DNA of 64,000 bases from a virus (Duplodnaviria; Caudoviricetes), in IMG/VR virus record IMGVR_UViG_3300025676_000014, positions 6,306 through 70,305 of that record; one strand, given 5' to 3'. Shown in pieces: positions 9,781-62,277 of the stretch; position 1 is the stretch's first letter, and the number at the start of each line of letters is the position of its first letter. Position numbers and translations under genes: made by a program. The notes beneath the pieces were generated by a model, which ran no database searches, was not told where the DNA came from, and was given only the letters and a program-made list of their open reading frames with translations.

Positions 9781-9973
9781 GGTGATTCAACGAGTGAGCG
9801 AAGCAACCGCTCAAGACCGTGATAAGCTAAAGGGCTTATTGGAACAGGGGTGGAACTACTGCCCGAACCATGAGTGGCGAGCATTCAGAGATGCTAAAGA
9901 TGAAGCCGAAATGTTCAAGGGCAAAAAGAAAAAAAGCAAGAGAGCAAAAGCCTTGACCAAGAAGCAAGGTTAA
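9758..9973 (+). CDS. small basic hypothetical protein
   Basis: KKG...RVS......L..GW.YCP..EW pattern. Confidence 0.55.
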   Translation: MKNVKKGKVIQRVSEATAQDRDKLKGLLEQGWNYCPNHEWRAFRDAKDEAEMFKGKKKKSKRAKALTKKQG

Positions 9974-10247
9974 CGTAGCATTGTGGTATGTATAGAGCTA
10001 AAATCCAAAGACGCCGCTATCGAAGCGTTTGCGAATTTGCTTGACGACAAAACAAGTCTCTGTTCTAATTAGGAATATGGAAACATTAGAACTCGTAGGA
10101 GAAACATTGACCTTACTTGAGCGTGATGCTGAAGACCAAGGCAACTGGTACACAAACAAAGAGGGGGAAGAAATTCACATCTCCGATGCCGAACTCCGAG
10201 GTGATCCCCCCACATACTGGGAATGGTAATTTTATTTAAGGATATTT

Positions 10248-13985: not shown

Positions 13986-14313
13986 TATGAAAAAAGAGAT
14001 TAAAAAAGACAGTAAATACTGGGTTATTCACAAAGAAATATATACTAGAGAATTAGATAAGCTAGATAGTGAAATTGCAGCGACCATTCAAACAAAACCC
14101 TATTCCAAAGAGGCTAGTATGTTGAATGACAAGGTAGATACAGAGATAGAAAGATTAACAAATGAAAATCCCAAGGTTGCGGGATAAAAAGCGAAATATA
14201 TATATAGAAAGTGCCGCGCATATTTATGGTTAATTATGATAATTATGGCGGCTTTTAAATTGTTCTTATTCTATTACATTTACTCTTGGTTCTTTTAAGT
14301 GATTCCTAAAACC

Positions 14314-14544
14314 CCAAGGATGCCAGATATTTTGCGAAATATTACTTGACTTAGTAGGGGGTACATGATATACTATTGTAGTTAAACTAGGGCTATACGT
14401 TCTATTTTGATAATCATAATCCCGCTTCTGCTTGGGTTCACCTTCGGGCAGGGGCGGGTTTTCCTTTTGTCCTACAGAAATCCCAAGGATGTCAGATATT
14501 GCTTAAATATTACTTGTTATAAAAAGCCAAGGATGCCAGATATT
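14314..14544 (+). repeat. three CCAAGGATGYCAGATATT direct repeats in a non-coding region
   Basis: Copies at 14314, 14483 and 14527, each followed by a GC..AAATA-like tail. Confidence 0.8.
14346..14467 (+). ncRNA. promoter plus candidate approx. 85-nt small RNA ending in a long GC hairpin
   Basis: TTGACT-17-TATACT at 14346-14374; hairpin CCCGCTTCTGC...GCAGGGGCGGG at about 14421-14458 then a T-run; no ORF. Confidence 0.4.
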
Positions 14545-14771
14545 TGCCTAAATAACACTGAGTGGAGGGTGAGATAGATAGATTGGTTAATTAAGTTATA
14601 AAATTATAATTATGGATAATTATGCGGCATCAACCGAATCCTATTAAGTAATACAGAAAGATATAGCCGCCCGTTTATTCTGTAATAGAAAAGCGGCATA
14701 AGAATAATTCTCATAATTACGAACGAATATCCTTGCACCGAGATCAAGGGTATAGTATGCTTAATGAAGTT

Positions 14772-16146: not shown

Positions 16147-16392
16147 CTTCTTTGTATTTTTTTTTCTACACACTTCAAATAAATAATATTCAAAATATAA
16201 GTTCATCGGAATAAATAAATAATGTGAAATATAAGGTAAAATAATGTAAAATAAGGAGACAAGCTTGTTGCGGTAAACTTCGAGCGGTTAGCTAGGATTT
16301 ATTGAAATAATATAAATAAACAGGCTGGATAACTCGTTTGTCATTAAATAAGGTAAATATAGATTAGTATGTTGAGTGATTTACTAAGGATT

Positions 16393-16433
16393 GCCGGGCT
16401 GCCCGGCGGCCTGTCAAGCTTTTTTTATTCACA
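16393..16433. repeat. symmetric module copy 1 (right half only) with TTATTCACA box
   Basis: GCCGGGCTGCCCGGC-ggcct-GTCAAG-N6-TTATTCACA. Confidence 0.9.
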
Positions 16434-16503
16434 GCCCGTGCCATTTTCTTAAAAGCAGGGAATTTCACATCGGAGAAATCGCCCCCTTATAAGAAACTTT
16501 CCG

Positions 16504-16594
16504 CTCACGAATGAGCGACAAACAAGCTTGTCAATCAAAAAACCCCCATAATGAGCGGCAAAACGTCTTGCCACTCACGAATGAGCGACAAACA
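16504..16594 (+). repeat. iteron-like repeats AATGAGCGRCAAA x3
   Basis: Copies at 16510, 16550 and 16580; two share CTCACGAATGAGCGACAAACA. Confidence 0.75.
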
Positions 16595-16749
16595 TATAGG
16601 CTAATTAATTGCCATTATATAGCATAATTAAAAGTGTGTCATAAAAGGTGTTATTTTATTGCAGAAAAAGCTTGCGCTGGATTCAAGGATGTGAGACAAT
16701 TAGGAAGAGTTAAACAACAACAGTAAACCAAGAAAGCAAAAAAACTATT

Positions 16750-17625
16750 ATGCCAAAGATCGCAACACAAACCTCCGACTTCGATTTCACCGTGAAACAA
16801 GTACCCCTATTTGATGAGCAAGGACGCCGTTCGGGCTTCTTCGGCAATCAACGCGCCGACACGGGCGGAATATTGGGCGTGACTTCAGACCGCTACGGCA
16901 TCGTGCAGCATGGCTCGCTTATTGAAGCCGCTGAAGAGGGCTTCGAAAATGCTAACCTTGGCGAGTTCGAGCGGAACGTGTACGTTACTGGCGATGGTGC
17001 GCGGATGAGAGCACACTACGACTTCAAGGATCAGACTCGTGCGCTTCGGCGTGAGGATCGTCAGGTGGGTGATGAGGTAGGCTTACGCCTTACCCTTCAG
17101 AACTCTTTTGATCGCTCGCTTCGCGTGTCGTTCGCGTTGGGTATGCTTCGGTTGGTTTGCACCAACGGCATGACAACCCTCGAAAATGAGGTGAGCATGA
17201 CCAAGAAGCACTCGGCCAATGTCGAGACCAACTTCCTTGAGGACGCTATCACCAAGGCCGTGAGCAACTGGGACGCCGCCGTGATCAAGGCCGAGGCCTT
17301 GACCGCTCGCGCCATCGAGCATGATCAAGGCTTGACCATCCTCGGTAACCTTGTTCGCATGGGTGCGCTTTCGGATCGTATGAGCGGCGAAATCGCCAAG
17401 GTGTGGAACTCGCCTGAGTACGACCTCGACAAAGCCCGCAACCTTTACAACCTGTACAATGCGACCACTCAGCACTTGACCCGCAACGTCGAGGACACTC
17501 GCAGCGAACTCGCTGACCGTACTTCGCGCAACGTGTTCAAGAAGCTGCACGATGCGGTTGCCCGTCCGAGCAACATGACCAAGCTTCTGCTGCCTCTCAA
17601 GACTATTGAGGTGGAGAACAACTAG
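16750..17625 (+). CDS. DUF932 family phage/plasmid protein
   Basis: LGVTSDRYGIVQH, LTLQNSFDRS, LRLVCTNGM, RNLYNLYNA.T. Confidence 0.82.
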   Translation: MPKIATQTSDFDFTVKQVPLFDEQGRRSGFFGNQRADTGGILGVTSDRYGIVQHGSLIEAAEEGFENANLGEFERNVYVTGDGARMRAHYDFKDQTRALRREDRQVGDEVGLRLTLQNSFDRSLRVSFALGMLRLVCTNGMTTLENEVSMTKKHSANVETNFLEDAITKAVSNWDAAVIKAEALTARAIEHDQGLTILGNLVRMGALSDRMSGEIAKVWNSPEYDLDKARNLYNLYNATTQHLTRNVEDTRSELADRTSRNVFKKLHDAVARPSNMTKLLLPLKTIEVENN

Positions 17626-17752
17626 GCTACCCAGCCTAACCCCTCGCCCCTCTTTCATATCGCCGTCAGTGACGGCTGGGGCGGGGGGCTTTTCTTTGCT
17701 CAGATTACCAAGGTTACTATAAATAAGACCTAATAATATAGTAGCCCCGCAT

Positions 17753-17831
17753 TGTGGATAACTTTCCCTTGACAGGCTGCCGGGCTGCCCGGCCAAATGT
17801 CAAGCTTTATTTACTCACAGCCTGTGAATAA
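17753..17831. repeat. symmetric module copy 2, complete, with DnaA-box-like 9-mers on both sides
   Basis: TGTGGATAA-N6-CTTGAC-aggct-GCCGGGCTGCCCGGC-caaat-GTCAAG-N6-TTACTCACA-gcc-TGTGAATAA. Confidence 0.92.
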
Positions 17832-17891
17832 GTGACGAAAAAAAATAAAAAAAAAGCTCGCCTTTTTGTGTGGGTGTGCTATCATTTGCGT

Positions 17892-18314
17892 ATGGTTAAA
17901 ACATACATCACCAAGTGCGGCAAAGACATTCAGGTTTTCATCAACGGCGACACGCGAGAAGAAGCGGAGCCGATTCATTGGAGCCTATTCAATCACGGAG
18001 CAACCAATCAAGCTGACCCCGAATGGATAGACCAGACCACGTTTAGCTTTTGGACGCAAAGGAGTCGCTTGCTCCGAGCGTTTCAAAAAGCGGCCATCAA
18101 TGGCATCGTTAACAATCACTCGCATAAGTTTGAGGGCAAACGCGGTGCGCTTATTCCTGCCCTTGCGGATAAAATGGCGGCACGGCGTATGCGTCAATGC
18201 GTCAACAAGCCTTATGTGCGCCAAGTGTCCGTTGCTAATCTAAATTGCTACGGCATCGGAACCATTCGAGCAGAGAAGCCCGACAGCGACCACGGCAATC
18301 GGGAAACAATGTAG
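17892..18314 (+). CDS. hypothetical protein (leaderless start)
   Basis: ATG 6 nt after TATCAT -10. Confidence 0.6.
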   Translation: MVKTYITKCGKDIQVFINGDTREEAEPIHWSLFNHGATNQADPEWIDQTTFSFWTQRSRLLRAFQKAAINGIVNNHSHKFEGKRGALIPALADKMAARRMRQCVNKPYVRQVSVANLNCYGIGTIRAEKPDSDHGNRETM

Positions 18315-18348
18315 TTGACAAGGAGTTAAGATTGTGAGACAATTAGAA

Positions 18349-19095
18349 ATGGAAAGCAAAAAACCTATTATGAAACTAAAATTCAAAAATGCAAACGGTA
18401 AACTCAAGAAGATGGCAAAAAAGCTTGGCCTTGTACTCAAGACCTTCACACTCCCTGCGGGATATACTTGCCCAGGTGCAAAGGATTGCCTTGCGTATGC
18501 CGACAGGAAAACAGGCAAGATCACAGACGGAGAGGAAACAGAATGGCGTTGCTTTATGGCGTCGCTAGAAGCGACCTTTCCAAGCCTCCGCGCAATGGTG
18601 TGGGAGAATTTGGAAATGATTCGCAAAGCGTTGAAGGGTGGCGTGGAGGCGTGTGCGGATCTGATTTGCGAGTCATTGCCAAAAAAGTTTGACGTGATGC
18701 GCGTCCACGTTGGCGGTGATTACTTTTCCCGCGAATACTTTATGGCGTGGGTTGAAGTCGCAAAGCGAAATCCCGACAAGGTGTTTTACTCTTACAGCAA
18801 AAGCCTTGCGATTATTGCGGGCATCCCTAAACCTGACAATCTCGTTTTGACTGCCTCCCGTGGTGGCAAGTATGACGATTTGATTGATCGCCTCGCGTGG
18901 AAAGAGGCGCGTGTGGTTTACTCTGAACAGGAAGCCGCCGACCTCGGTTTAGAGATAGACCACGACGACGAACACGCAGCGTTTGGCAAAAAAGATTTTG
19001 CGTTGCTCATTCACGGTACGCAACCCAAGGGAAGCGCAGCGGGCGAAGCACTAAAGCAAATCAAAAAACTTGCAAAAGCTGCAAGTATCGCTTAA
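18349..19095 (+). CDS. GP88-like protein (gene product 88 family)
   Basis: TFTLPAGYTCPGA..C, RVHVGGDYFS.EY, FYSYSKS, LVLTASRGG. Confidence 0.75.
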   Translation: MESKKPIMKLKFKNANGKLKKMAKKLGLVLKTFTLPAGYTCPGAKDCLAYADRKTGKITDGEETEWRCFMASLEATFPSLRAMVWENLEMIRKALKGGVEACADLICESLPKKFDVMRVHVGGDYFSREYFMAWVEVAKRNPDKVFYSYSKSLAIIAGIPKPDNLVLTASRGGKYDDLIDRLAWKEARVVYSEQEAADLGLEIDHDDEHAAFGKKDFALLIHGTQPKGSAAGEALKQIKKLAKAASIA

Positions 19096-19158
19096 CCTTT
19101 AAAAAGATGGATATACTAATCGCATTCGTTTTTTTATCAGCAATCGGAGGAATTATCT

Positions 19159-19386
19159 GTGGATATACCAAACAATAAAATAGCAGACTTTGCAATACTA
19201 CAAAATTCGCGTACTAAAGTAACAGGTCTTTGGACTAAGGATCGCGGCGAATGGATAAAGGCAGAGCGGAGCGAGTACGAAGTTTTGGCCTTGGTCGCCA
19301 AGCTAATTCGCACCGCTAAAAATCCCAACGATGTTTTGCTTGCCATTGTAAAAGAGAACCCTCACCTGACAGGGCCAGAAGAATAA
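19159..19386 (+). CDS. hypothetical protein
   Basis: co-oriented ORF. Confidence 0.45.
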   Translation: MDIPNNKIADFAILQNSRTKVTGLWTKDRGEWIKAERSEYEVLALVAKLIRTAKNPNDVLLAIVKENPHLTGPEE

Positions 19387-19396
19387 TATTTTAATG

Positions 19397-19435
19397 CTTG
19401 ACATAGGCTGCCGGGCAGCCCGGCCGAAAGTCAAG
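19397..19435. repeat. symmetric module copy 3
   Basis: CTTGAC-N7-GCCGGGCAGCCCGGC-N5-GTCAAG. Confidence 0.9.
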
Positions 19436-19512
19436 ACTTTTCTTCAACTATTTTTTTCTTTATGACACAATTAGCTCTCGACTTTTGTGGGATTATATGA
19501 GAGAATACTCTT

Positions 19513-19632
19513 ATGAAAGTTAAAGCAAGAGTGAACAAGAAGGGGCTTATGGGCAGCGCGTCCCGTGAGCATAAAGTAAAGAAGGGCAAAGGGTCTTTCC
19601 GTCGCAGAAAAAAGCATCAGAAAGTTTTTTAA
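19513..19632 (+). CDS. ArfA-like ribosome-rescue peptide, 39 aa (not in the ORF track)
   Basis: MKVKARVNKKGLMGSASREHKVKKGKGSFRRRKKHQKVF; KKGKGS(F/Y).R..KH is the ArfA signature; ATG 6 nt after GAGAAT -10. Confidence 0.6.
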   Translation: MKVKARVNKKGLMGSASREHKVKKGKGSFRRRKKHQKVF

Positions 19633-19685
19633 TGCTTGCGTTAGCTTCAAGCCTATGATAGAATTAGAACAGTTAAGAGAACATT

Positions 19686-19880
19686 ATGAAAACCTACAAA
19701 ACCTACCAAGCGCGTAACGCCGTCAAGGCCGCGCAAGTCACCAACCACATCAAGGCCGCAAAAAAGAATGGTGTCGGCCACATCACCGCGAAGGCAGAGG
19801 CTTATCGCGTTTACAATATCAAGGCGGGCATCCCTTTGATTAAGCGAGGGCTTCAAGTCCGAGAGGGGGTGGCAAGTTGA
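19686..19880 (+). CDS. small basic hypothetical protein
   Basis: Follows promoter TTGCGT-17-TAGAAT. Confidence 0.55.
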   Translation: MKTYKTYQARNAVKAAQVTNHIKAAKKNGVGHITAKAEAYRVYNIKAGIPLIKRGLQVREGVAS

Positions 19881-20077
19881 AGGCCGTTATTGAAATTGAA
19901 TTGGGCAACTCAGCATTTGGCAGCAATGATGCCGAAAGATTATTTGAGATGCGGAACGTGCTTGAAAGGCTAATAGATAACGCTGACCGCATTATGGCGG
20001 CAGACGTTGGCGACTTCACAACCGCGCAAGACCACAACGGCAACACAGTTGCGAGAATGGACATCGTAGAGGATTAA
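19877..20077 (+). CDS. hypothetical protein
   Basis: I.IELGNSAF...E..R.L....D.....D.NGNTV pattern. Confidence 0.55.
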   Translation: MKAVIEIELGNSAFGSNDAERLFEMRNVLERLIDNADRIMAADVGDFTTAQDHNGNTVARMDIVED

Positions 20078-20080
20078 ATT

Positions 20081-20263
20081 ATGAGACAATTAAGAAAACC
20101 ATTTCAACACACACAAACACTTGTGATTGCAGAAGTAAGAGAACAAATCCAAGAGGACATCATTGCCTTTATTGATTCGGTTGTCCCTACGTCAAGTGAT
20201 GAGTATAGGAAAAACGCACTTTGCCAAATCGTAGTAGACAACTTTAAGAAATTGGAGGATTAA
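20081..20263 (+). CDS. hypothetical protein
   Basis: ATTATG start. Confidence 0.55.
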   Translation: MRQLRKPFQHTQTLVIAEVREQIQEDIIAFIDSVVPTSSDEYRKNALCQIVVDNFKKLED

Positions 20264-21285
20264 ATTATGAAAAAATGGTTAGTAACGAGAATAACTCATA
20301 CAACGATTGAAGTTGAATCGGAAACTGAACCCTTACAAGGTGATGATAAGTGGAAGTTTGAGGATGAACATCGCAAGGAACTTGAAGAAGAATATCGTAA
20401 TGTGGAGTGCGTAGATTGGGAAGTAACGGAATTGGAGGATTAAATGACAAAAAAAGAAACAAAACAAATCGACGCCACTTTAATGTGGGCAATCGTTGCC
20501 AGTAACAGAAATGCCGACAAGGGCAAACTATTAAGCGCGTTTGCCTTTGACATCAACCGAATCCGCTCAGGCAAAGAGCCGACAGCTACGAAGGAGTTGG
20601 TATAATGTACAGATACTTTAGAGCAACCTGTAACGAAGATGGCACAGAACCAGATGAAAGAACCATCATAGAGGTTCCCTCCCCAGCGGTAACTGGCGGG
20701 GTGGTTTTCGCTATCGGTATCTTGGTGGGTGTGATTGTAACAATCTTATTTAGATAACTATGAAACACACAGTAACAAACGGCCCATATGGTTTAATTAG
20801 AATTGGAGATATTTATTTCAATAGTAATGGAATCTTTAATCTAGAGGGCAAAAAGATTGGCACAAAGAAAGCAAAAAAGATTATAAAATTAGAGGACTTT
20901 GATTATGAACAAAACTAAAAACAAAATGACTAGAGCAATGAGCGCACACCTCGGTCTGCACCGCGTCAAGGGAGCCACCTCGGAGAAGGAAAGGAACTCG
21001 CCGAGAGCGGTTAGGAGGAGAGCGGAAAGACGAAATCGGGCAAGACGGTTGCGGTGAGGCTTTGATAAAAACGGAGAACTAATTAAATGACAACTAAATT
21101 CGGCCCATTAACAAAAGCGTTTTGCTTAAAGCGACCACGGTTCAGACTGTTGCGTTTGTGTTCTACCTGTGATGAGACGGTGAGCAAAGAGGGCAGCAAG
21201 AAATATGACTGTCCAAGGTTCTGTTCGTGTGAGGGAAATAGCGAGGTCAAAGCTTGGTTCAAGTGATAGAAATAGCAAATTAAAG

Positions 21286-21322
21286 CTTGACATCCCGCCG
21301 GGCTGCCCGGCCAAAAGTCAAG
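21286..21322. repeat. symmetric module copy 4
   Basis: CTTGAC-atccc-GCCGGGCTGCCCGGC-caaaa-GTCAAG. Confidence 0.9.
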
Positions 21323-21364
21323 AACAAAATGAAAAAAACTTTCTTCAATTTAACTAAAAAAAAG

Positions 21365-21440
21365 CTTGTACCTAGAGCAAGGGTATGGCATAATTAAAGA
21401 CCAGTGAGGGTAACACCTCCAACGATCTTTGAAACAATTT
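21365..21440 (+). promoter_or_regulatory. sigma70 promoter, hairpin and boxA-like antitermination leader of an RNA operon
   Basis: TTGTAC-17-CATAAT; GAGG-GTAACA-CCTC hairpin 21406-21419; GATCTTTGAAA 21424-21434. Confidence 0.6.
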
Positions 21441-21442
21441 AA

Positions 21443-21580
21443 GCCACGGAAGTTGGTGCTGTTAAATGAAACGCAGCAGTCTTAAAGCCGAAAGCAGTTA
21501 CCTCTGGGGAGATATCCCAAACAAGGAGACTAGCTGGGAGTCGTAAGTCTTGGGGGCGGGGTTCGAATCCTCAACGTGGC
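21443..21580 (+). ncRNA. tRNA-like structured RNA (unit 1, 138 nt), not a canonical tRNA
   Basis: GCCACG/CGTGGC terminal helix, T-loop GGTTCGAATCC 21560-21570, TGCTG/CAGCA and AGTCT/AGACT helices. Confidence 0.65.
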
Positions 21581-21588
21581 AACAATTT

Positions 21589-21669
21589 ACTGGGAGGCGA
21601 AACACAGCCTTGGCAAGCCTAACGCAGCAAACGGGATACGCGTCCTGTTAGGGGCGAGGAAGCACCAGT
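21589..21669 (+). ncRNA. structured RNA unit 2
   Basis: ACTGG/CCAGT closing helix, AGGC/GCCT and CCTAAC/GTTAGG hairpins, AACAATTT linkers on both sides. Confidence 0.5.
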
Positions 21670-21679
21670 ATAACAATTT

Positions 21680-21901
21680 GGAGCATCGACGGATGTTCCA
21701 TCGGAGCGTAGTCTAATAATGGTTTGCAAGAGCCATAGGACACCGAAACAAAAAGCAGGAGATTATCAATCTCTGGGAGCCTAGTAGCACAGTTCGCGAG
21801 GACGCAGCTATGAAGTAAGTAGGGTACGAAGTACGTAGGGAAACTGAACTTTATCAGGCCCCGAAAGTAGTTGCAGGTAATAAAGAAATCCTGTCGTTCC
21901 A
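21680..21901 (+). ncRNA. structured RNA unit 3 (approx. 220 nt)
   Basis: Ends complementary (GGAG..CGACGG / CTGTCG.TTCC); internal hairpins GGAGCATC/GATGTTCC, ATGGTT/AGCCAT, GAGAT/ATCTC; no credible plus-strand ORF. Confidence 0.5.
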
Positions 21902-21959
21902 TTAATTTAGTAACAAAAAAAGCTTGCCACAGGGGCAAGGGTATGATAGGATTAGAACA

Positions 21960-22328
21960 ATGAAAGCAATAAAAATCGACGCGACCAACAGAACCATCAC
22001 CGAAGTCCAATACGATGACTTCAGAGACATTCAACGCCACATCGGCTGTGATACCTTCAGCCAAGGTATGCCCTTGCCAGAGGGTGATGTGCTTTGGGTA
22101 GACGATTGCGGTTGGATGACCGCCAAAAAGGCATTCACCTTTATGGGCAACGTGTTCGCTGGCAACGGGCTTATCACTGGCAGCGATGGGGATGGTGGGG
22201 GGAAGGATTGTCTTTGCAATGTTATGGCTGGTCAGCTTATGGCCAAGTTTATGGCAGGGGAAAAAGAAATCACTGACGATATGCGTGAACGAGCATTTGA
22301 CTCTTGGACAGTAACGGAGATTGAATAA
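21960..22328 (+). CDS. DUF3846-like phage protein (leaderless start)
   Basis: MKAIKIDA..RTITEV, IQ..IGC, VLWVDD.G, FAGNGLITG. Confidence 0.65.
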   Translation: MKAIKIDATNRTITEVQYDDFRDIQRHIGCDTFSQGMPLPEGDVLWVDDCGWMTAKKAFTFMGNVFAGNGLITGSDGDGGGKDCLCNVMAGQLMAKFMAGEKEITDDMRERAFDSWTVTEIE

Positions 22329-22890
22329 TATGAAAAACCTACTAGATACCGTATTGGGCACAGCATCGACTGTGATGATTGCCGCCGCTATTGCTTACGC
22401 GCTTCTATGCGCTGGGGCTTATAGCCTAACGGCAGCAGAGCAACCACTAACCAAAGATGAGCAAACCATTTCTGTCACTCTAATGGGTGAAGCGCGTGGA
22501 GAAAAGAGTTTCGGTATGTATGCCGTTGCTTGTGTGATTCAAAAACGAGCAGACGAGCGTGAGTTGACTCCCGCCCAAGTGTGCAGGGAAAAATGGCAAT
22601 TCTCTTGCTGGAACAAAGGGCAGGAAAAGTATCTCAACCTAATGAAGCGGCTACTCAAGGCGAACACGGTAGAAGCGCGATATGCAAAGCAGTTGGCGCG
22701 AGCCATTTGTGCGGGTGGTCGATTGATTCACAGCTTCACTGGCGACGCTAATCATTATTATAGCACGAAAGCAATGTCGGAACCGCCTTACTGGGCTTAT
22801 AAGACTATTAAAAGAAAAAACCAAGTACCCATCAAAGTACGCATCACCCCAAGCCGAATCATTGGAAACCACGCATTTTACAAACTCTAG
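22321..22890 (+). CDS. cell wall hydrolase, SleB / Hydrolase_2 family
   Basis: TLMGEARGE, MYAVACVI.KR, KWQFSCWN, HYY, IGNHAFY; N-terminal TM/signal segment. Confidence 0.85.
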   Translation: MNNMKNLLDTVLGTASTVMIAAAIAYALLCAGAYSLTAAEQPLTKDEQTISVTLMGEARGEKSFGMYAVACVIQKRADERELTPAQVCREKWQFSCWNKGQEKYLNLMKRLLKANTVEARYAKQLARAICAGGRLIHSFTGDANHYYSTKAMSEPPYWAYKTIKRKNQVPIKVRITPSRIIGNHAFYKL

Positions 22891-22963
22891 AAAACTGAAG
22901 GCTAAAGCGAAACTCAACTAATAAGGGAAAACTGAAGGCTAAAGCGAAACCTCGCTAATAAGG
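22890..22963 (+). repeat. 37-bp tandem duplication
   Basis: GAAAACTGAAGGCTAAAGCGAAAC-(TCAA/CTCG)-CTAATAAGG twice. Confidence 0.85.
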
Positions 22964-22980
22964 AGAGGGGAAAGAAAAAG

Positions 22981-23045
22981 CTTGACATCCTGCCGGGCTG
23001 CCCGGCCAAAAAGTCAAGACAAAGTTATGCCCAACGTGTTAATAA
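22981..23045. repeat. symmetric module copy 5
   Basis: CTTGAC-N5-core-N6-GTCAAG-N6-TTATGCCCA-acg-TGTTAATAA. Confidence 0.88.
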
Positions 23046-23097
23046 CTTCGTGAATTTAATTCTTGCAATCTCGCGGGATTTATGGTTTAATATACGT

Positions 23098-23340
23098 ATG
23101 TTGAAAATGAACGTGACCCTTAAAGCCAACGACCAAGCCACCCGCCGCACCCGTAACCGCATCGCGGAACACGGCCCAGACTTTCGGGCGGTGAAGTCGG
23201 GCAATTGTCCTGACTTGGGCAGCGATTTGCATTTGCTTGTTCGCTCGCAGGATGGCTGGCTTGGTTGGTTGCCTTGGAATGAAGTCAACTGGCAGCACGT
23301 ACAGGGTAAGGATTTCGCGCTGGTATTAGGGTGTGAATAA
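23098..23340 (+). CDS. hypothetical protein (leaderless start)
   Basis: ATG 6 nt after TTTAAT; TTGCAA -35. Confidence 0.6.
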   Translation: MLKMNVTLKANDQATRRTRNRIAEHGPDFRAVKSGNCPDLGSDLHLLVRSQDGWLGWLPWNEVNWQHVQGKDFALVLGCE

Positions 23341-23547
23341 CTTTTTAAATTAGTGCTTTACTTTCCTAGTTTTTTCTGTTATACTATAAGCATAGAAAGT
23401 GAGAGACCAAACGATGTAAAATTAACCAAAAGACTCAGTCATCCAGCGAGGTGACCACAATTTTTACCGCCCAGCGTGGACTGACAGGATCTGAAGCGCA
23501 GGACAAGGCCAGTTGTGGGGCTGAGTACCACGACACAATTTTAAATT

Positions 23548-23778
23548 ATGAACGACAACAACAACCACGACGCTCGCATCTCTTGCGAGGAAATCTACAC
23601 CGAGGATATGGGGCCAGCGACTTGGGCCAACGAGCCTGAGCCTACCACGCACAAGGAGGCCTATGGACGCTGCGAGGACGCGCCTTGCTGCGGTTGCTGC
23701 GGCAACTACGAGGAGGACGGCTATGGCTCCCCCGCCGATGACGCTTGGCACGACGCCAACGAGTACCCCGAATGGTAG
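23548..23778 (+). CDS. small acidic Cys-cluster protein
   Basis: RCEDAPCCGCCG motif. Confidence 0.6.
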   Translation: MNDNNNHDARISCEEIYTEDMGPATWANEPEPTTHKEAYGRCEDAPCCGCCGNYEEDGYGSPADDAWHDANEYPEW

Positions 23779-23781
23779 GGG

Positions 23782-23843
23782 TGTGAATAACTTCTTTGAT
23801 TTAAGGGTTGACATTTGGCCGGGCAGCCCGGCGGTTTGTCAAG
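23782..23843. repeat. symmetric module copy 6 at the convergence point of plus and minus blocks
   Basis: TGTGAATAA-N16-GTTGAC-atttg-GCCGGGCAGCCCGGC-ggttt-GTCAAG. Confidence 0.88.
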
Positions 23844-23851
23844 AACAAAGT

Positions 23852-24388
23852 TTAGTTTTTACAATATTCTTTTGGCACTTGCGCCCAGCATTCTCTTGCG
23901 ATAATAACTTTGCGAGCGATATAAATAGGATCAATGCGCGTGCTTAAACGCGCGGGGTTTATTTTGTCACCCTTATAGTGGGTGAAGCTCACGAAGTTAC
24001 GATAGACCTTGGGATCATAAGTGATCTGTTTCCACTCATAGCCTTCCCTGACATCCATTTCCCGATGCTTCAAGGATTGAGCGGCGGCGGTAGCGTGATC
24101 CAATTCCTCTTCGTCCATATCGTCGTGACGCCACACAGCATTGATGATGCACCCACGAATGACCGCGTGAACATTCTTGCGGCCTTCATCCCGCACACGC
24201 TGGTTGCCCTTTGGCCCGACAGCAAACTTCACGGGGTACTTGGTATTGCCATCCATAACAACGCATAGGGCAGTACCTTCGACAAGGCCATTCTTACGCA
24301 CGGAGTAAACCACTTCGTCGCGATAGCGCAGATTTCGATAAACTTCGCGCCCGAACGTTTTGATTGCGTCTTTTAATGTGAAAGGCAT
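23852..24388 (-). CDS. conserved phage hypothetical protein
   Basis: VYRNL...YSVR..GLV, F.V...G..RVR.EGRKNVHA.IRG, ITYDP..Y..F pattern. Confidence 0.65.
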   Translation of the reverse strand: MPFTLKDAIKTFGREVYRNLRYRDEVVYSVRKNGLVEGTALCVVMDGNTKYPVKFAVGPKGNQRVRDEGRKNVHAVIRGCIINAVWRHDDMDEEELDHATAAAQSLKHREMDVREGYEWKQITYDPKVYRNFVSFTHYKGDKINPARLSTRIDPIYIARKVIIARECWAQVPKEYCKN

Positions 24389-24394
24389 AATGTT

Positions 24395-24622
24395 TTAACT
24401 CACTTTCGAACGGTCAACGTAAACGTCGATTTCGTTTTCTGTTAGTTCTAACTCTTCACCGTCTTGGTCAATCACAACCACGGTGTCAAATTCTGTGATT
24501 TCATCAACTATCATTAGTTGCATTCCTACGCGAACTTCGTCGCCTACTTTTACTTGTTGGTTTTCTATTGTCATAATCTTTAATCGTTTACTGTGTATAG
24601 TATAGCACACTGGGTGGGACAT
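24395..24622 (-). CDS. small acidic SH3-like hypothetical protein (start probably at MTIEN)
   Basis: VKVGDEVRVG..LMIVDEI. Confidence 0.5.
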   Translation of the reverse strand: MSHPVCYTIHSKRLKIMTIENQQVKVGDEVRVGMQLMIVDEITEFDTVVVIDQDGEELELTENEIDVYVDRSKVS

Positions 24623-24634
24623 TTGCCGTCCTAC
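24614..24634 (-). promoter_or_regulatory. palindrome class-II promoter element, copy a
   Basis: GTGGGAC-atttgcc-GTCCTAC, 9 nt from TGC-TATACT on the minus strand. Confidence 0.7.
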
Positions 24635-25083
24635 CTATCAAATTCTTTTTGGTCTTCACTCACTAGCTCACCCAGTTCGCCAAGCCCTTCGAGGTTGCGT
24701 GGGTCATTGTCTACCAGCTTGCGAGTCAACTCGCGCACGAGGGCTTGCTTCTTTGCCACTACGCTCTTGCTGCTGACCTTAGCCCAATCGGCGGGTTGGT
24801 TGATGTCTACGCCTACGGTGAACACGTTGCGGACATTGAAACCGAGCATCGACAGGGCGAGGCGAATGAACGGCGCGCTTAAGTCTCCGCGAGCGGTTAA
24901 GATGTCAAACGCTTTGCCGCTATCGCGAACCAGCACGCCCAATGGGGTGAGATCCTCTTCCTCTAGGTTAAGGATCGCGCTAGGGTTGGTGAAATCAAAC
25001 AAACGCTTGGAGCCGCGCACCTCTTTGATGAGGGTTCCGTCTAAGTCGAATAAGGGTTTTAAAATGTCGTTCTTAACTTTCAT
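24631..25083 (-). CDS. HAD-like domain protein (leaderless start)
   Basis: LFDLDGTL, ILTARG, VDND HAD motifs. Confidence 0.6.
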   Translation of the reverse strand: MKVKNDILKPLFDLDGTLIKEVRGSKRLFDFTNPSAILNLEEEDLTPLGVLVRDSGKAFDILTARGDLSAPFIRLALSMLGFNVRNVFTVGVDINQPADWAKVSSKSVVAKKQALVRELTRKLVDNDPRNLEGLGELGELVSEDQKEFDR

Positions 25084-25227
25084 TACGAATAGTATAACTG
25101 AAAAAAACGAAAAAGTCGAGAACCAATTGTGTCATAAAAAAGAAAGTTTTTTCACTTTAGCCTTGACATTTGGCCGGGCAGCCCGGCTACTTGTCAAGGA
25201 AAAGTTATTCACATCTGCCGTCCTACC
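25080..25227 (-). repeat. symmetric module copy 7 plus duplicated approx. 110-bp promoter head
   Basis: CTTGAC 25162, core 25173-25187, GTCAAG, N6, TTATTCACA 25205; near-identical to 25738-25844. Confidence 0.9.
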
Positions 25228-25318
25228 TTGTGACTTTCTTTTTCTTATCGTCTGCGTGGTTGTGGTCGGCTTGCTTTGCTCGTCGGGCTTATCATTATCG
25301 TTTTCGTTTTCATATTCT

Positions 25319-25486
25319 TTACTTCCAGCAATCACTTTCGTCAATTTCAAAATTCCAAGCGTCTTGGTCGTGGTCTCGGCAGTCATTGCCGAAGCTATCG
25401 TTTCGGACACCTGTAAAAGTTTCGTCTTCGTCGCTGTGCCAACCTCTGAAGGTTAGCTCGTTTGTGTTTTCATTTTTGTTTTTCAT
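25319..25486 (-). CDS. small acidic protein, 55 aa (not in the ORF track)
   Basis: MKNKNENTNELTFRGWHSDEDETF...DCWK downstream of a class-II promoter. Confidence 0.5.
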   Translation of the reverse strand: MKNKNENTNELTFRGWHSDEDETFTGVRNDSFGNDCRDHDQDAWNFEIDESDCWK

Positions 25487-25525
25487 AATCTTTATCTTCT
25501 AACTGCGTCTAGTATAGCATACGAG

Positions 25526-25546
25526 GTGGGACATCTGCCGTCCTAC
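25526..25546 (-). promoter_or_regulatory. palindrome class-II promoter element, copy c
   Basis: GTGGGAC-atctgcc-GTCCTAC, 9 nt from TGC-TATACT. Confidence 0.7.
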
Positions 25547-25740
25547 CTGTTAAATTCTTTGAATCTTTCAAATCGTCCTTCCATCGGCTGAACCCTTGTG
25601 GTTCCCCATTTCTTTTTGGCAATCCGCTTGGCGTGTGCCAAGTCAAATGCCTTGATGTGGGTGGTGGTGGTAGTGCCATCGCTCCACGTGGCAATTCTTA
25701 CTTCAAAAAGTTCGTCTTTCATTTCGTCTTTCATTTTCAT
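25543..25740 (-). CDS. hypothetical protein
   Basis: HIKAFDLAHAKRIAKK; shares an A.D..HA..IA motif with 28420-28632. Confidence 0.55.
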   Translation of the reverse strand: MKMKDEMKDELFEVRIATWSDGTTTTTHIKAFDLAHAKRIAKKKWGTTRVQPMEGRFERFKEFNR

Positions 25741-25858
25741 TACGAATAGTATACCTGAAAAAATCGTAAAAGTCGATCACCAATTGTGTCATAAAAAAGA
25801 AAGTTTTTTCACTTTAGCCTTGACATTTGGCCGGGCAGCCCGGCAGCCTGTTGTCAAG
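25738..25858 (-). repeat. symmetric module copy 8 plus duplicated promoter head
   Basis: CTTGAC 25819, core 25830-25844, GTCAAG 25853. Confidence 0.9.
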
Positions 25859-25946
25859 CTTTATTTTTGCATTTAATCGCGCCAGATGTAGTCGTCAACG
25901 TTCCAGCCTAGTATTATAATGGCGGCAATAAGTATTAAGATAATCA

Positions 25947-26213
25947 TTATGCCTCCACCATATCAAATGCGAATGTCTCACCTTCGTCGCTTGAGTAAAT
26001 CTCAAACAGATTCTTGGTGATAGGGTTCCACACTTGCACTGTTTCAAGGCTCGCGCCTTCGTCATCAAATGAATGCCAATTCATAATGTGATACGTTCCC
26101 ATTGCGATAGGGTGCTTCACCCGCTTGTCAGTGCTGCGTCTGTGTAACGTCACCTTGCCTTGGCTCAAGTTGTTGGCATCGGTGTCTTCGTAGGTTGCTT
26201 CGTACTGTTTCAT
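25947..26213 (-). CDS. hypothetical protein
   Basis: co-oriented ORF. Confidence 0.55.
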   Translation of the reverse strand: MKQYEATYEDTDANNLSQGKVTLHRRSTDKRVKHPIAMGTYHIMNWHSFDDEGASLETVQVWNPITKNLFEIYSSDEGETFAFDMVEA

Positions 26214-26216
26214 AAT

Positions 26217-26483
26217 CTAGTCTCTGTCTCTGATGTCGTTGCCTTCATCATCATTATAATAACCTTCCACGTTCCAAAGTTTATCATAGTCAACCTTTGG
26301 ATATGCGACTTTGCCTTGCGGCGTGTCGTAGTGTGTTTGTTTGTTCACACCTTTGGCGTAAATCTCTTGAGCCAGTAGCTCCATCTTTTTGTTATATGTC
26401 ATACTCATAATTTTAAATCTCTTACATTTCCGAATAAGTGCCATCGTAGCAGCTTGGCTCATAAGCCTCTGGCTGCGCGTCAT
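26217..26483 (-). CDS. hypothetical protein
   Basis: co-oriented ORF. Confidence 0.5.
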   Translation of the reverse strand: MTRSQRLMSQAATMALIRKCKRFKIMSMTYNKKMELLAQEIYAKGVNKQTHYDTPQGKVAYPKVDYDKLWNVEGYYNDDEGNDIRDRD

Positions 26484-26715
26484 ACCAAAACTCTTCGGAG
26501 GTGGGCATCATATCTGAAAAGTTATCCTCGATTTTTTGAGTGCTCTCCTGCACTTCGGATATGTCAAAAATGTAATGGTTTGCCGACTTGGCTCTTGCGG
26601 TGGCAATCTCCAAGGTTGGGGCTTCGATGATGTAATTTCCGAGCTGGCCATAACGGCCTTCGGTTTCTACGTTGAAGGTTTTTATTTTGTTTTTCATATC
26701 TGTTTCAATTATCAT
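26422..26715 (-). CDS. hypothetical protein beginning MIIETDMK (leaderless)
   Basis: ATG 6 nt after TATAAT; first 8 codons identical to 28420-28632. Confidence 0.6.
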   Translation of the reverse strand: MIIETDMKNKIKTFNVETEGRYGQLGNYIIEAPTLEIATARAKSANHYIFDISEVQESTQKIEDNFSDMMPTSEEFWYDAQPEAYEPSCYDGTYSEM

Positions 26716-26736
26716 AAGTCTATTATAGCATAGAGG

Positions 26737-26757
26737 GTGGGACATCTGCCGTCCTAC
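26737..26757 (-). promoter_or_regulatory. palindrome class-II promoter element, copy d
   Basis: GTGGGAC-atctgcc-GTCCTAC, 9 nt from TGC-TATAAT. Confidence 0.72.
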
Positions 26758-26968
26758 CCTTTAACTTTCGCAAACCTCAACCCACTCATCTTCTTCGTTG
26801 GTTGCGGGGTGAACGGTAACCTCGAAAGGCCCGAATGTGAATGTCTCTTCTCTGTTGTTTTCTTCGTTCATAATCTTGTTTCTCTCACTCTCAATATAAA
26901 GATTGTATCACAGAAAAACAGAAAAGTCGAGCACAAACCAGGTAAGTTATTAACATTTATTTTGCTAT

Positions 26969-27035
26969 TGTGAGTATTTAGTTCTTGACATTTGGCCGGG
27001 CAGCCCGGCGGCCTGTCAAGGAAAAGTTATTAACA
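26969..27035. repeat. symmetric module copy 9, complete 67 bp
   Basis: TGTGAGTAT-N6-CTTGAC-atttg-core-ggcct-GTCAAG-N6-TTATTAACA. Confidence 0.9.
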
Positions 27036-27048
27036 GTCTTCGGGGTTT

Positions 27049-27654
27049 TTACTTGTTGAAAAGATAACTCATAGTGCTGTGAAACCGCGAGGAGATAAGC
27101 AATTTAATCCAACAGTCCTTACCGACGCGCGGATGTGCCTTCCGCAAGGAGCCGTTTTTGGTGACCGTCTGCTTCCATTCGTCCCGTCTATACAATTCAA
27201 GGATTACTTTACTAGGAATCTCCCACCATTCAAGCAGTCCCTTTTCACGCACTAGCGAGGTGTCGCATATAAGAAACATATCCACTTTAGAGCATTTAAA
27301 TTCAATCGCCTTGTTTACTTCGGGGCCGTCCAGCCTCCGAATTGCGTCACTCGAATTCACAAAACATACCGTCGAGGAGGGCAGAGTAAAATCGCGAGTA
27401 CGGATTTCCCACTTTTCACCATTGCCCGCAACAGCGTCCCAAGCTGCGTGCGAGCATTCGGCGGCGAGTCCGATATACGTTTGAAAATCTGCCTCAACCT
27501 CGAAACCAGTACTTGAATTGCCGCTGTGGCTCCGTTTATATTTTTTTAAAAGCTTATTGTGTTCAATCATAAAACTGGAATAGCCAATGCCGTGAGTGAT
27601 TTCCTTACCTCTATAGTAAGCAATTTCTTTGGTAATGTTTTGCAGTGATTTCAT
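27049..27654 (-). CDS. hypothetical protein
   Basis: 201-aa ORF. Confidence 0.65.
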   Translation of the reverse strand: MKSLQNITKEIAYYRGKEITHGIGYSSFMIEHNKLLKKYKRSHSGNSSTGFEVEADFQTYIGLAAECSHAAWDAVAGNGEKWEIRTRDFTLPSSTVCFVNSSDAIRRLDGPEVNKAIEFKCSKVDMFLICDTSLVREKGLLEWWEIPSKVILELYRRDEWKQTVTKNGSLRKAHPRVGKDCWIKLLISSRFHSTMSYLFNK

Positions 27655-27664
27655 ATTAATTTAC

Positions 27665-28318
27665 TTATTTAAATTGTGAATCCCATTTTGCTTGAGAGTA
27701 TCCAAGATTTAACCCCATCCCTCTGCGATAGCGTATAAGCGTGGGGTGAATCCCGCACTTTCTGCCGTAGACTACTGCCGTCCATTGGGCCGCGCCTTCA
27801 CCTGTGTGGCGAGTGTCGCAATGTTTAAACTCGTGCAATAGTGAAACGGTCACCGTTGAGGTTAGCCCGTGGCTTAAATTCCTATCTCCAATGGCTATAC
27901 TAGCAGCAGAAGGCCAAGCAACTGATCCTGCGTTATTAACTTTTGGATCACAGTTATGGATGATTGACTTAACGCCCCGCTGGCCAACTGCGTACATATA
28001 GGGAGATCCTTTTTCAATGATCTTTAAATGCTTAACGATTCTGTTATGGAAAAAGATATCGCCCCGTATCTTCCACCCGTCATAGGTGCGCACTACTGAG
28101 CAGGGGTCAATGCCAGTATAAGGCTGGCGCAGTAAAGCCCTGCGATCCTTCGGCGTAAGCTCAGCAGAGGCGAGGGTGGTGAGCAGTAGCGATGCGATTA
28201 TTAGGTTGATTGTTTTCATAGTCTTAGGCCCATTCTCCTGTGCTGTGGATGTACCAGATAGGGTAAACCTTTTCGTTAGCGTATACGGGGTGGTGCATCT
28301 TAAAGTTTTTAAGCGCAC
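27665..28318 (-). CDS. putative secreted HExxH metallopeptidase-like protein (start probably MKTINL)
   Basis: Signal-peptide-like MKTINLIIASLLLTTLASA; SLLHEFKH. Confidence 0.5.
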   Translation of the reverse strand: MRLKTLRCTTPYTLTKRFTLSGTSTAQENGPKTMKTINLIIASLLLTTLASAELTPKDRRALLRQPYTGIDPCSVVRTYDGWKIRGDIFFHNRIVKHLKIIEKGSPYMYAVGQRGVKSIIHNCDPKVNNAGSVAWPSAASIAIGDRNLSHGLTSTVTVSLLHEFKHCDTRHTGEGAAQWTAVVYGRKCGIHPTLIRYRRGMGLNLGYSQAKWDSQFK

Positions 28319-28419
28319 CTGCCTTGTCGAATCCGCAAGTGTTGAACGTGAGTCCGTTGCGCAAGTTGATTGTGTATTTGAGTCCTTTCATAATCTTTTA
28401 ATCCTTCTCTGTTGAATTT

Positions 28420-28632
28420 TTATCGTTCCATACTTTCTTCGTAGGTTAGCACTCTTGTGCCCTTGCTACCTTCTCCAATGAGCTTGATCTTTACGCCTTT
28501 GCAGTAAAGCCTTTCAGCAATACGCCTAGCGTGTGGGACATCGTATGCCTTGATAAAGCCAAGGGTTGCATCCCCATCAAACGTGAGGACTTCAAATAGT
28601 GTTTCTGTTTTCATATCTGTTTCAATTATCAT
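28420..28632 (-). CDS. hypothetical protein beginning MIIETDMK (leaderless)
   Basis: ATG 6 nt after TATAAT. Confidence 0.6.
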   Translation of the reverse strand: MIIETDMKTETLFEVLTFDGDATLGFIKAYDVPHARRIAERLYCKGVKIKLIGEGSKGTRVLTYEESMER

Positions 28633-28653
28633 AAGTCTATTATAGCGTAAGAG

Positions 28654-28674
28654 GTGGGACATCTGCCGTCCTAC
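28654..28674 (-). promoter_or_regulatory. palindrome class-II promoter element, copy e
   Basis: GTGGGAC-atctgcc-GTCCTAC, 9 nt from TATAAT. Confidence 0.72.
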
Positions 28675-28933
28675 CCTCTAACTTTCTTCATCCTCTACAG
28701 GGTGGAGGAAAGGGCCGAGGTGGGCGTTATCCCGTTGCCATTGTCGGGCGAGTTCCCGCACTTGTTGCACGGATTCGTTCCAGCGTTGCACACGGGCCTC
28801 GGCCCTGCGTTGCTCTTCTTGTACTTCTTGTTCAGTTCTCATTCGTCTCTCACTTTCAATAGGGAAAGTATAGCATAGCAGCGACTGAATTACAAGAAAA
28901 ATCGCACCAAGTTATCAACATTTATTTGCGCAT

Positions 28934-29000
28934 TGTGGACATTTTATGCTTGACTTCCTGCCGGGCTGCCCGGCCAAATGTCAAGCTTTATTTACCAACA
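28934..29000. repeat. symmetric module copy 10, complete 67 bp, at the divergence point
   Basis: TGTGGACAT-N6-CTTGAC-ttcct-core-caaat-GTCAAG-N6-TTACCAACA; extra TTATCAACA at 28912. Confidence 0.9.
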
Positions 29001-61128: not shown

Positions 61129-61169
61129 TAGGTGAAAAAAGAAATTGATAAGAAATAATTGGAAAACCT

Positions 61170-61415
61170 CAATTAATTGGGGTAACATACATTAAGATTG
61201 GCCATATTGGGTGAATTCGGTGAAACTCTTAGAGATAAGACAATACCGAGCCAAGCTAGAGACGGGTTTAAACTCTCTAGAAGGTGTAGAGACTAGGCGG
61301 TGAGTCCCAACGATAACCCGCCCACGAGCGCCCAACACCGAAAGGTGAAGATATAGTCCGAACTGCGTGGTGACGCGCAGAAGCTGTAATTAAAAAAGCA
61401 GTGATAACATAATTG
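61170..61415 (+). ncRNA. group I self-splicing intron without homing endonuclease (alternative 5' end at 61126)
   Basis: P GAATTCGGTGAAA 61213, Q AATACCGAGCCAAG 61242, R GGTGTAGAGACTA 61283, S GAAGATATAGTCC 61347; P3 TTGGGT/GCCCAA; P8 CACC-GAAA-GGTG; P9 hairpin; terminal TTG. Confidence 0.92.
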
Positions 61416-61938: not shown

Positions 61939-62277
61939 ATGGCGGCGCATTATGATTTAAATATTACAAAAGGGTCATCTTTTACAGTGAGATTACTGGC
62001 CCAAGATACTGGCGGCTCCGTCATCGACTTAACAAACTGGAGCGTTCGCGGTTACGCTAAAATTAAGTATTCAGAATCTAATCTACTTGTTGATTTGAAC
62101 CCGCAGAAAGTCGCCCCATACTCTAACGGTTACATAGACATACAACTTACGGCAGCGACAACCTCAACCCTCCCAGTTACTGAAGGGGTTTACGATATAG
62201 AGATGTACGATGATAGCGGCTACGTAGATAAACTTTTAGCTGGATATGTAAGAGTCTACCCAGAAACGACATACTGA
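61939..62277 (+). CDS. BppU-like / tail adaptor domain protein
   Basis: [12 protein letters not shown]......G..IDLT.WS.RG..K; GVYDIEM...GYV..LL.G.V.VYPE. Confidence 0.6.

Follow-up and report, generated by a model that had tools for sequence, protein, structure and literature searches.

A probable operon for stable non-coding RNAs, headed by an rrn-like leader, in a marine phage genome

The leaders of the bacterial ribosomal RNA (rRNA) operons, rrn, carry their signals in the order boxB-boxA-boxC, boxA being required, and also enough, for the formation of the rrn transcription antitermination complex, rrnTAC, with NusB, NusE, NusA, NusG and SuhB (PMC10250234). In bacteriophage T4, two small stable RNAs, rnaC (species 1, 139 nucleotides (nt)) and rnaD (species 2, 119 nt), follow the tRNA-Arg gene with AU-rich spacers. 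The manA RNA, for its part, was first described in 5' untranslated regions (5' UTRs) in 2010 as a riboswitch candidate (Weinberg et al., PMC2864571) and is catalogued in Rfam as cis-regulatory, while according to a 2026 cryo-electron microscopy preprint manA RNAs assemble in vitro into decamers and into an RNA-only cage of 60 subunits (10.64898/2026.07.01.735769). In the cultured cyanophage S-CREM1 (OP535465), the annotation places manA directly between tRNA-Leu and tRNA-Asn, and the authors took it to be cis-regulatory (PMC9964418). The present analysis concerns a short region, positions 21357 to 21904, of a 64,000-nt stretch of DNA (hereafter the window) from the IMG/VR virus record IMGVR_UViG_3300025676_000014, and we consider it probable that what the phage encodes here is an operon of stable non-coding RNAs.

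A preliminary description, made from the letters of the window alone, had proposed an rRNA-operon-style transcription unit carrying three non-canonical structured RNAs, and every feature that it listed was recovered at its position. With the limits adopted here, the region and its downstream boundary read as follows.

21357 to 21396, plus strand: promoter module, made of an A-tract, a -35 element, a 17-nt spacer and a TG-extended -10 element, with a predicted start near 21400.
21403 to 21419, plus strand: leader hairpin, AGUGA and then a boxB-like stem-loop (GAGG, loop GUAACA, CCUC; 21406-21419).
21424 to 21440, plus strand: boxA-like element GATCTTTGAAACAATTT; the first ACAATTT linker makes up its last 7 nt.
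21434, plus strand: start of linker 1, ACAATTT, at the 3' end of the boxA-like element.
21443 to 21581, plus strand: unit 1, 138 nt plus a discriminator A, delimited by its fold and by comparative stems.
21582 to 21588, plus strand: linker 2, ACAATTT, between units 1 and 2.
21589 to 21669, plus strand: unit 2, an 81-nt predicted three-way junction (fold z -2.39).
21673 to 21679, plus strand: linker 3, ACAATTT, between units 2 and 3.
21680 to 21904, plus strand: unit 3, a full-length match to Rfam RF01745 (fold z -3.18).
21915 to 21954, plus strand: promoter module of the DUF3846 gene (21960-22328) that comes next, TTGCCA-17-TAGGAT with TG.

When compared with related sequences, the region displays a conserved leader, three structured modules, modular exchange at the linkers and no conserved coding, and compensatory changes were present in all three units once homologs had been collected. 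Homology was assessed with profile hidden Markov models (HMMs) and Rfam models; 14-15-mer seeds gave mostly unrelated matches, and filtering with nhmmer was required.

The promoter TTGTAC-17-CATAAT is present as initially described (-35 at 21366-21371, -10 at 21389-21394), with TG two bases 5' of the -10 element and a CTTG/CAAG inverted repeat in the spacer, and, in about 25 related arrays, canonical TTGACx-17-TATACT promoters that stand equally far from the leader align with it. The small hairpin and the boxA-like sequence reported behind it were found as well. In about 25 distinct arrays the leader keeps the order A-tract, TTGACx-17 nt-TATACT/TATAAT, a few bases, AGUGA, hairpin and G-N-UCUUUGA(A/G)A(C)AAUUU, this order and its spacing being conserved though promoters and first modules differ. 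The hairpins of the relatives are short, mostly with a GAAA loop, and their stem sequences vary; since different paired stems occupy the same place (AGGG-GAAA-CCCU, UGAGG-GAAA-CCUCA, GAUGAGG-GAAA-CUUCAUC), the leader stem keeps its pairing despite sequence change. The boxA-like element itself occurs in related arrays as GCTCTTTGAAACAATTT, GATCTTTAACAATTT, GGTCTTTGAAACAATTT and GTTCTTTGAG, among other versions.

Read directly, the E. coli rrnB leader consists of the boxB hairpin, two bases and then TGCTCTTTAACAATTTA, and the window sequence GATCTTTGAAACAATTTA is a close match to GCTCTTTAACAATTTA of rrnB. In both cases promoter, hairpin and boxA follow one another, G-A/C-UCUUU(GA)AACAAUUUA corresponding to UGCUCUUUAACAAUUUA of E. 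coli, and the window leader heads an untranslated, highly structured multi-RNA unit. The likeness to rrn can be called strong because the order is conserved in about 25 arrays and the rrnB match is close. The window version nevertheless differs in being phage-encoded and in serving small RNAs rather than rRNA, and in that no boxC or leader-trailer helices were identified in the window array. Of the rrn-style leader initially claimed, the hairpin and boxA-like order behind a promoter thus stands, while Nus antitermination is what this order suggests.

Two sets of observations touch this leader. The array promoter is one of five copies in the window of a promoter-like repeat family, D12 (7313, 14724, 16663, 21357 and 21915), each with an A-tract, GCTTG, 6-9 nt, CAAGG and a -10-like hexamer, which suggests a phage-specific promoter or operator class. 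In addition, the 17-nt boxA-like sequence stands directly after the stop of a 74-75-aa gene in six IMG/VR contigs of another phage group (L211, L213, L222, L210, L215 and L226), where it heads different structured RNAs; in L215, an abiF RNA (44 bits) and a tRNA come next.

In unit 2, a closing helix leads to a hairpin whose loop reads GAAACACA and to a long arm; this arm is interrupted by small internal loops rich in purines and ends in the apical loop ACGCG. When a 20-nt pattern taken from its core was searched for, 56 contigs from marine metagenomes were retrieved, all of which hold unit 2, complete in 55 of them and cut by the contig end in L366; it is also found in five IMG/VR contigs. The alignment of the 23 distinct sequences from these 61 arrays contains 26 pairs, with 99.5% of the pair cells paired and compensatory change at seven pairs, compared to only 30-49% pairing in slid-partner controls. 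About 50 of the 81 positions are invariant across the 23 sequences, a conservation that is partly by construction because some 27 of them are covered by the 20-nt seed and by the CTGGGAG and GAGGAAGCACCAG anchors used for collection and extraction, the remainder being free of this effect. In one lineage, the distal hairpin has been swapped for an unrelated one and the rest kept. No match was obtained in Rfam at E values up to 10 or in cultured phage genomes, and the Hrs1 and eL15-leader hits returned by Rfam were dismissed as chance-level. On this comparative evidence, unit 2 is a new, very conserved structured RNA family, and a manA-family RNA lies at most 300 nt downstream of it in 49 of the 58 arrays (84%) that extend far enough.

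In the window, the RNA at that place is unit 3, and here the initial reading has to be amended, as unit 3 belongs to the known manA family. At Rfam gathering thresholds nothing is reported in the region; a permissive scan over a 1.5-kb search space aligned unit 3 with positions 1-192 of the manA model RF01745 (20.5 bits, E 0.011), a score below the gathering value of 55.2 bits, and sister sequences reached 21-26 bits. RNAs above the threshold occupy the matching slot in related arrays (L231 69.7, L190 69.5, L337 68.8, L343 66.6 and L195 60.5 bits), and the series descends from there through the intermediates L333 (50.6 bits) and L339 (48.0 bits) to 25.7, 22.5, 21.1 and 20.5 bits. The predicted fold comprises a 5' hairpin with a CGACGG loop, a closing helix (21703-21708/21895-21900), nested hairpins and a 3' hairpin GCAGG...CCUGU, which is the full manA architecture of 5' hairpin, enclosing long-range helix, internal hairpins and 3' hairpin. 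In the alignment of its subclass (13 sequences, 226 columns), 13 of the 56 predicted pairs are compensatory, one pair of the enclosing helix being changed on both sides in 9 of the 13 sequences. Finally, profile HMMs built on the canonical and on the variant form hit the same sites reciprocally, both forms coming after unit 2 and a linker. Because of the full-length match, the compensatory pairs, the intermediates and the cross-hitting HMMs, unit 3 was filed as a divergent manA member: as far as sequence and predicted fold can tell, it is a manA-family RNA lying below Rfam's own cut-off and not a new RNA.

With manA, unit 3 has in common the GACG-type 5' loop, a closing helix of long range, a GGUA...AAUCC loop on the 3' hairpin, the slot and, like the family, an origin in marine phage. 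It differs in its middle part and in the total length of the RNA, which is greater by about 30 nt; it belongs to a subclass of its own with at least 13 sequences, and here it is a module of an RNA operon rather than a 5' UTR element. The three units had also been described as self-closing; terminal helices do close units 1 and 2, but the term is only rough for unit 3, since a local hairpin comes first and the long-range helix encloses the rest.

A related annotated setting for such a module is that of S-CREM1, in which manA likewise belongs to a one-strand, head-to-tail array of RNA genes (wcaG, tRNAs, manA, abiF), with the difference that true tRNAs abut manA there and that neither a boxA leader nor ACAAUUU linkers were seen. 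In the same genome, the 170-nt gap between tRNA-Met and tRNA-Leu holds an unannotated tRNA-like sequence with GGTTCGATTCC (L381:1165-1240; record about 9964-10039). In view of the 5' UTR origin and the cis-regulatory entry of manA, and as the window has no terminator between unit 3 and the next gene, the whole region might be taken for a long cis-regulatory 5' leader of the riboswitch type controlling the DUF3846 and endolysin genes. We judge this quite improbable, since the DUF3846 gene has its own promoter module between unit 3 and its start, related arrays end in terminators or precede unrelated genes (L195 and L231 end in strong intrinsic terminators, and downstream genes vary between relatives), the same modules occur inside tRNA arrays, and three unrelated structured modules behind an antitermination leader are unlike riboswitch anatomy.

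Unit 1, the remaining module of the proposed operon, has a tRNA-type outline, with a 7-bp acceptor stem, a 5-bp T stem, a UUCGAAU loop and a discriminator base. The window copy pairs GCCACG(G) with CGUGGC in its acceptor stem, carries UUGG at positions 11-14 as well as two long arms, and has GGGG-UUCGAAU-CCUC as its T arm, with one mismatch per stem (6 of 7 acceptor pairs, 4 of 5 T-stem pairs); it has no anticodon loop and no encoded CCA, the arm at the anticodon position being capped by a GAUA tetraloop. Related arrays provide at least seven types of sequence, 107 to 174 nt long, in which the 7-bp acceptor stem and the 5-bp T stem covary, five bases and then GG follow the acceptor stem without a D stem, a 60-130-nt body contains an invariant GAAAGC, the T loop is invariably UUCGA(A/U/G)(U/C), and the discriminator is A. 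The preliminary statement that no unit is a standard tRNA is borne out: ARAGORN called no tRNA or transfer-messenger RNA (tmRNA) in the region or the 61 arrays, Rfam gave no tRNA (RF00005) or tmRNA match to unit 1, nor anything at E values up to 10, and no anticodon arm was found. The exact 3' end of unit 1 had no match in IMG/VR.

The spacing of the GG after the acceptor stem resembles the layout of the tRNA-like domain of E. coli tmRNA (ssrA). Unit 1 is like tmRNA in its 7-bp acceptor stem, its five bases and GG without a D stem, its T arm near the 3' end and its discriminator A, but it is only 107-174 nt long across relatives, the ARAGORN and Rfam tmRNA models are silent, and it has no conserved tag frame: the frame is open after GCC in the window, but relatives such as L343 read GCC UGA, with a stop straight behind the sole candidate resume codon. 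No pseudoknots were identified in unit 1. Judged by these covarying stems, unit 1 is a tRNA/tmRNA-like RNA without an anticodon arm, and not a tRNA.

An RNA that looks like a tRNA deprived of this arm, in arrays where cassette-like gain and loss are observed, could also be regarded as a product of decay, the units then being what is left of a decaying array of tRNAs, or selfish cassettes, without function for the phage. The probability of this appears very small, given the strong purifying selection on unit 2 (again with about 27 of its some 50 invariant positions fixed by the collection patterns), the helices kept intact by compensatory changes, and the core and T loop of unit 1, which are invariant across types.

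Modular exchange, the further argument for an operon of separate RNAs, takes place at the linkers. As first described, the same ACAATTT precedes each unit on the plus strand. The heptamer is not enriched as such, with 14 copies on both strands of the window against 17 expected by chance; its three placements are nevertheless not attributable to chance, as they fall on one strand within 246 nt, at exact helix boundaries, and are conserved in relatives. Of the 36 distinct types of sequence that flank unit 2 on its 5' side, nearly all finish with AAUUU or AUUUU, the linker after unit 2 is kept as AACAATTT in most arrays, and manA modules are followed by AAUUU, as is unit 3 in the window (21904-21908). 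The window and two near-identical phages, L330 and L361, have the upstream gene, the promoter and the leader in common, and their first slot either contains unit 1, in the 138-nt version or in a 107-nt version of another type, or is empty. Across arrays, the slot after unit 2 is taken by manA, in its canonical or its variant form, by another tRNA-like RNA or by one of several other uncatalogued modules, and AACAATTT nearly always stands before it. Contigs from four RNA libraries tell of the same exchange, with relatives whose sequence leaves that of the window at precisely 21579/21580/21584 and 21679 to go on with other modules. Runs X16 and X18 covered the RNA units without the flanking genes, a lack of cover that is not evidence, and no end-to-end joints indicative of circular forms were seen in the assembled RNA-library contigs.

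Two further modules were noticed. One, uncatalogued and of about 130 nt, recurs in the same arrays (L190:2304-2500 and L231:6245-6387, both on the minus strand, and many metagenome loci such as L344, L365 and L372); it is closed by AUCCUGU...GCAGGAU, conserves CAGCC...AAGACAG...AAAGCUGGGUGCAGUCAUGUGGCAC and has no Rfam match. The other, of about 47 nt, directly follows unit 2 without a linker (L190:2454-2500, minus strand; L337, L343, L356, L360); its closing stems covary (GCAUAGG/CCUAUGC versus CUUGGG/CCCAAG), and it conserves GUGAAG-AAC-AACG-CCG...GAGG-CGGCC. Elsewhere in the window, at 23340-23547, a promoter-like CTTTAC-17-TATACT is followed by AGTGAGAGACC and two plus-strand ACAATTT copies (23457 and 23535). 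The 71-nt segment between them, just upstream of a 76-aa open reading frame (ORF; 23548-23778), was considered as an RNA module and rejected, as it folds no better than shuffles (z 0.2-0.5).

Head-to-tail small stable phage RNAs with short AU-rich spacers are also what T4 rnaC and rnaD represent. Besides, rnaC is of the size of unit 1, and its 3' end consists of a T arm, GGGUUCGAAUCCC, then a short strand of a stem and ACA, a likeness seen by visual comparison. T4 differs in having no boxA leader and in that its RNAs belong to a true tRNA cluster, whereas the window array is without tRNA. These parallels bear on an unlikely alternative, namely that the transcript of about 500 nt stays uncut as one multi-domain RNA in which ACAAUUU would provide flexible spacers or represent boxA remnants. 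In its favor, no RNA ends are observed in assembled-contig data, some arrays (L190 type) have a module after unit 2 without any linker, and the fixed order of unit 2 and manA, adjacent in 49 of 58 arrays, could reflect a need for physical linkage. Against it, near-identical phages gain, lose and exchange modules at the linkers, the geometry of unit 1 is that of an RNase P substrate, the S-CREM1 manA is flanked by tRNAs, which RNase P and 3' processing excise, and the annotation of T4 treats rnaC and rnaD as small stable RNAs in their own right.

The initial observation that no credible plus-strand ORF exists was confirmed, plus-strand ORFs reaching at most 46 aa. The minus-strand ORF of 237 aa (21648-22361), whose conservation and translation had been named as a threat to an RNA reading, proved not to be conserved. 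That this frame is open in the window could argue for a real gene with only incidental RNA structures, a reading to which we give next to no credence. Most of the frame is antisense to the Pfam-matched DUF3846 gene; over unit 3 it is open only in the four closest sequences, the other nine of the 13 having two to four stops; unit 3 varies by 1-2 nt in length within the subclass; and the window frame cannot continue in L008, in which a different sequence follows unit 3 and the DUF3846 gene is absent.

Several observations weigh against a Nus-dependent, processed RNA operon and temper the confidence placed in it. A simple sigma-70 consensus scan omits the array promoter, because its -35 element matches the consensus at only three of six positions. 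The leader hairpin, taken alone, is thermodynamically unremarkable (fold z 0.08), and the internal linkers correspond to the 3' half of boxA only. A search for the exact boxA-like 17-mer in 185,579 representative genomes gave 91 matches, approximately the chance number, with none beside a 16S start; three contig ends of Hoylesella enoeca among them may be rrn leaders, this organism being implausible as a marine host, and the Marinomonas matches were rejected as leaders of RNA operons, as they lie upstream of an ABC-transporter gene. The RNA-library data consist of assembled Logan contigs, which cannot show strand, ends or level. Finally, no intrinsic terminator was found between unit 3 and the next promoter module (21915-21954), which marks the downstream limit of the RNA unit, so that transcription could run on into the DUF3846 and endolysin genes.

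Regarding the way in which the operon would work, we infer a single precursor transcript that recruits Nus factors and is cut at the linkers; which nucleases act, and what the RNAs might do in the cell, belong to the same inference. Transcription would start from the phage promoter near 21400, and the nascent leader would fold its small hairpin and expose the boxA-like sequence. This RNA might then recruit the host NusB/NusE(S10)-NusA-NusG machinery, which would allow an untranslated, structured transcript to escape early termination by Rho or pausing. The transcript would thus present three autonomous RNA modules with single-stranded A/U-rich linkers (ACAAUUU) between them. A single-stranded linker that contains AUU beside a stable helix fits RNase E-type sites. 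Host endonucleases may cut the linkers, most likely by an RNase E-type cut before AUU, while RNase P and 3' trimming may act on the tRNA-shaped unit 1. The expected products would be a tRNA/tmRNA-like RNA without an anticodon arm, an 81-nt three-way-junction RNA and a divergent manA RNA.

It is tempting, if speculative and on balance improbable, to imagine that the three RNAs act together, unit 2 being a partner of the manA cage and unit 1 a handle, in a phage RNA-only particle that interferes with the host. In such a scheme, unit 2, which accompanies manA in 49 of 58 arrays and lies upstream of it each time, may serve as cargo, cap, assembly chaperone or docking adaptor, and the self-complementary CGCG of its near-invariant apical loop could support loop-loop pairing. 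Unit 1 may be recognised by host tRNA enzymes or by the ribosome, the target then being translation or a tRNA-directed defence.

As to the genome that carries the locus, the source record measures 70.3 kb, with a completeness estimate of 44%, and the window encodes ClpP, rIIA, PhoH, a large terminase (TerL), a YHYH baseplate-type protein and an endolysin; among the 20 window proteins scanned, there was no enzyme of RNA processing, no ligase and no CCA-adding enzyme. The public runs that hold the stretch with the RNA array are marine or seawater metagenomes. A close cultured phage was sought through TerL and rIIA, the best matches having only 23-29% identity, to unrelated phages, and blastn against cultured phage genomes returned nothing for the whole region, for unit 2 or for a canonical manA.

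A palindromic module, TTGACA-N-GCCGGGCTGCCCGGC-N-TGTCAAG, occurs in about ten copies between early genes, on both strands, from 16388 to 29000 of the window. Its copy 4 (21282-21322), just upstream of the promoter of the RNA operon, lacks a plus-strand U-tract and is therefore not an obvious terminator. A 179-nt RNA-library contig (run X17) joins position 21316, within this copy, to about 23011, after copy 5, which reflects either a relative without the whole 1.7-kb cassette (RNA operon, DUF3846 and endolysin) or a repeat assembly artefact. Other repeats in the window are a 40-nt repeat (AAAACCCCAAGGATGCCAGATA...), non-coding and present in three copies (14164-14559) upstream of a RuvB-like gene, and an 88-nt repeat in four copies (24561-28698) upstream of minus-strand genes, with a palindrome GTGGGAC-N7-GTCCTAC beside TATAGT-type hexamers. 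Further on, a group I intron (Rfam 76.2 bits; 61104-61380) comes right after a 2387-aa ORF; behind it stands an ORF built of 9-nt (Gly-X-Y, collagen-like) repeats (62277-63998), which runs off the window.

In the open-access literature, no paper was found on boxA-led phage arrays of such modules. The manA RNA, an orphan riboswitch candidate since 2010, appears here and in dozens of marine phage contigs as a module of a probably antiterminated stable-RNA operon, a position that fits the report of an RNA cage and argues against a cis-regulatory role. Besides, the locus would define an 81-nt RNA that is absent from catalogues, shows very strong conservation and is in tight linkage with manA, as well as a class of anticodon-less tRNA/tmRNA-like RNAs. 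It also suggests that phages may borrow the host rRNA antitermination signal to mass-produce structured RNAs.

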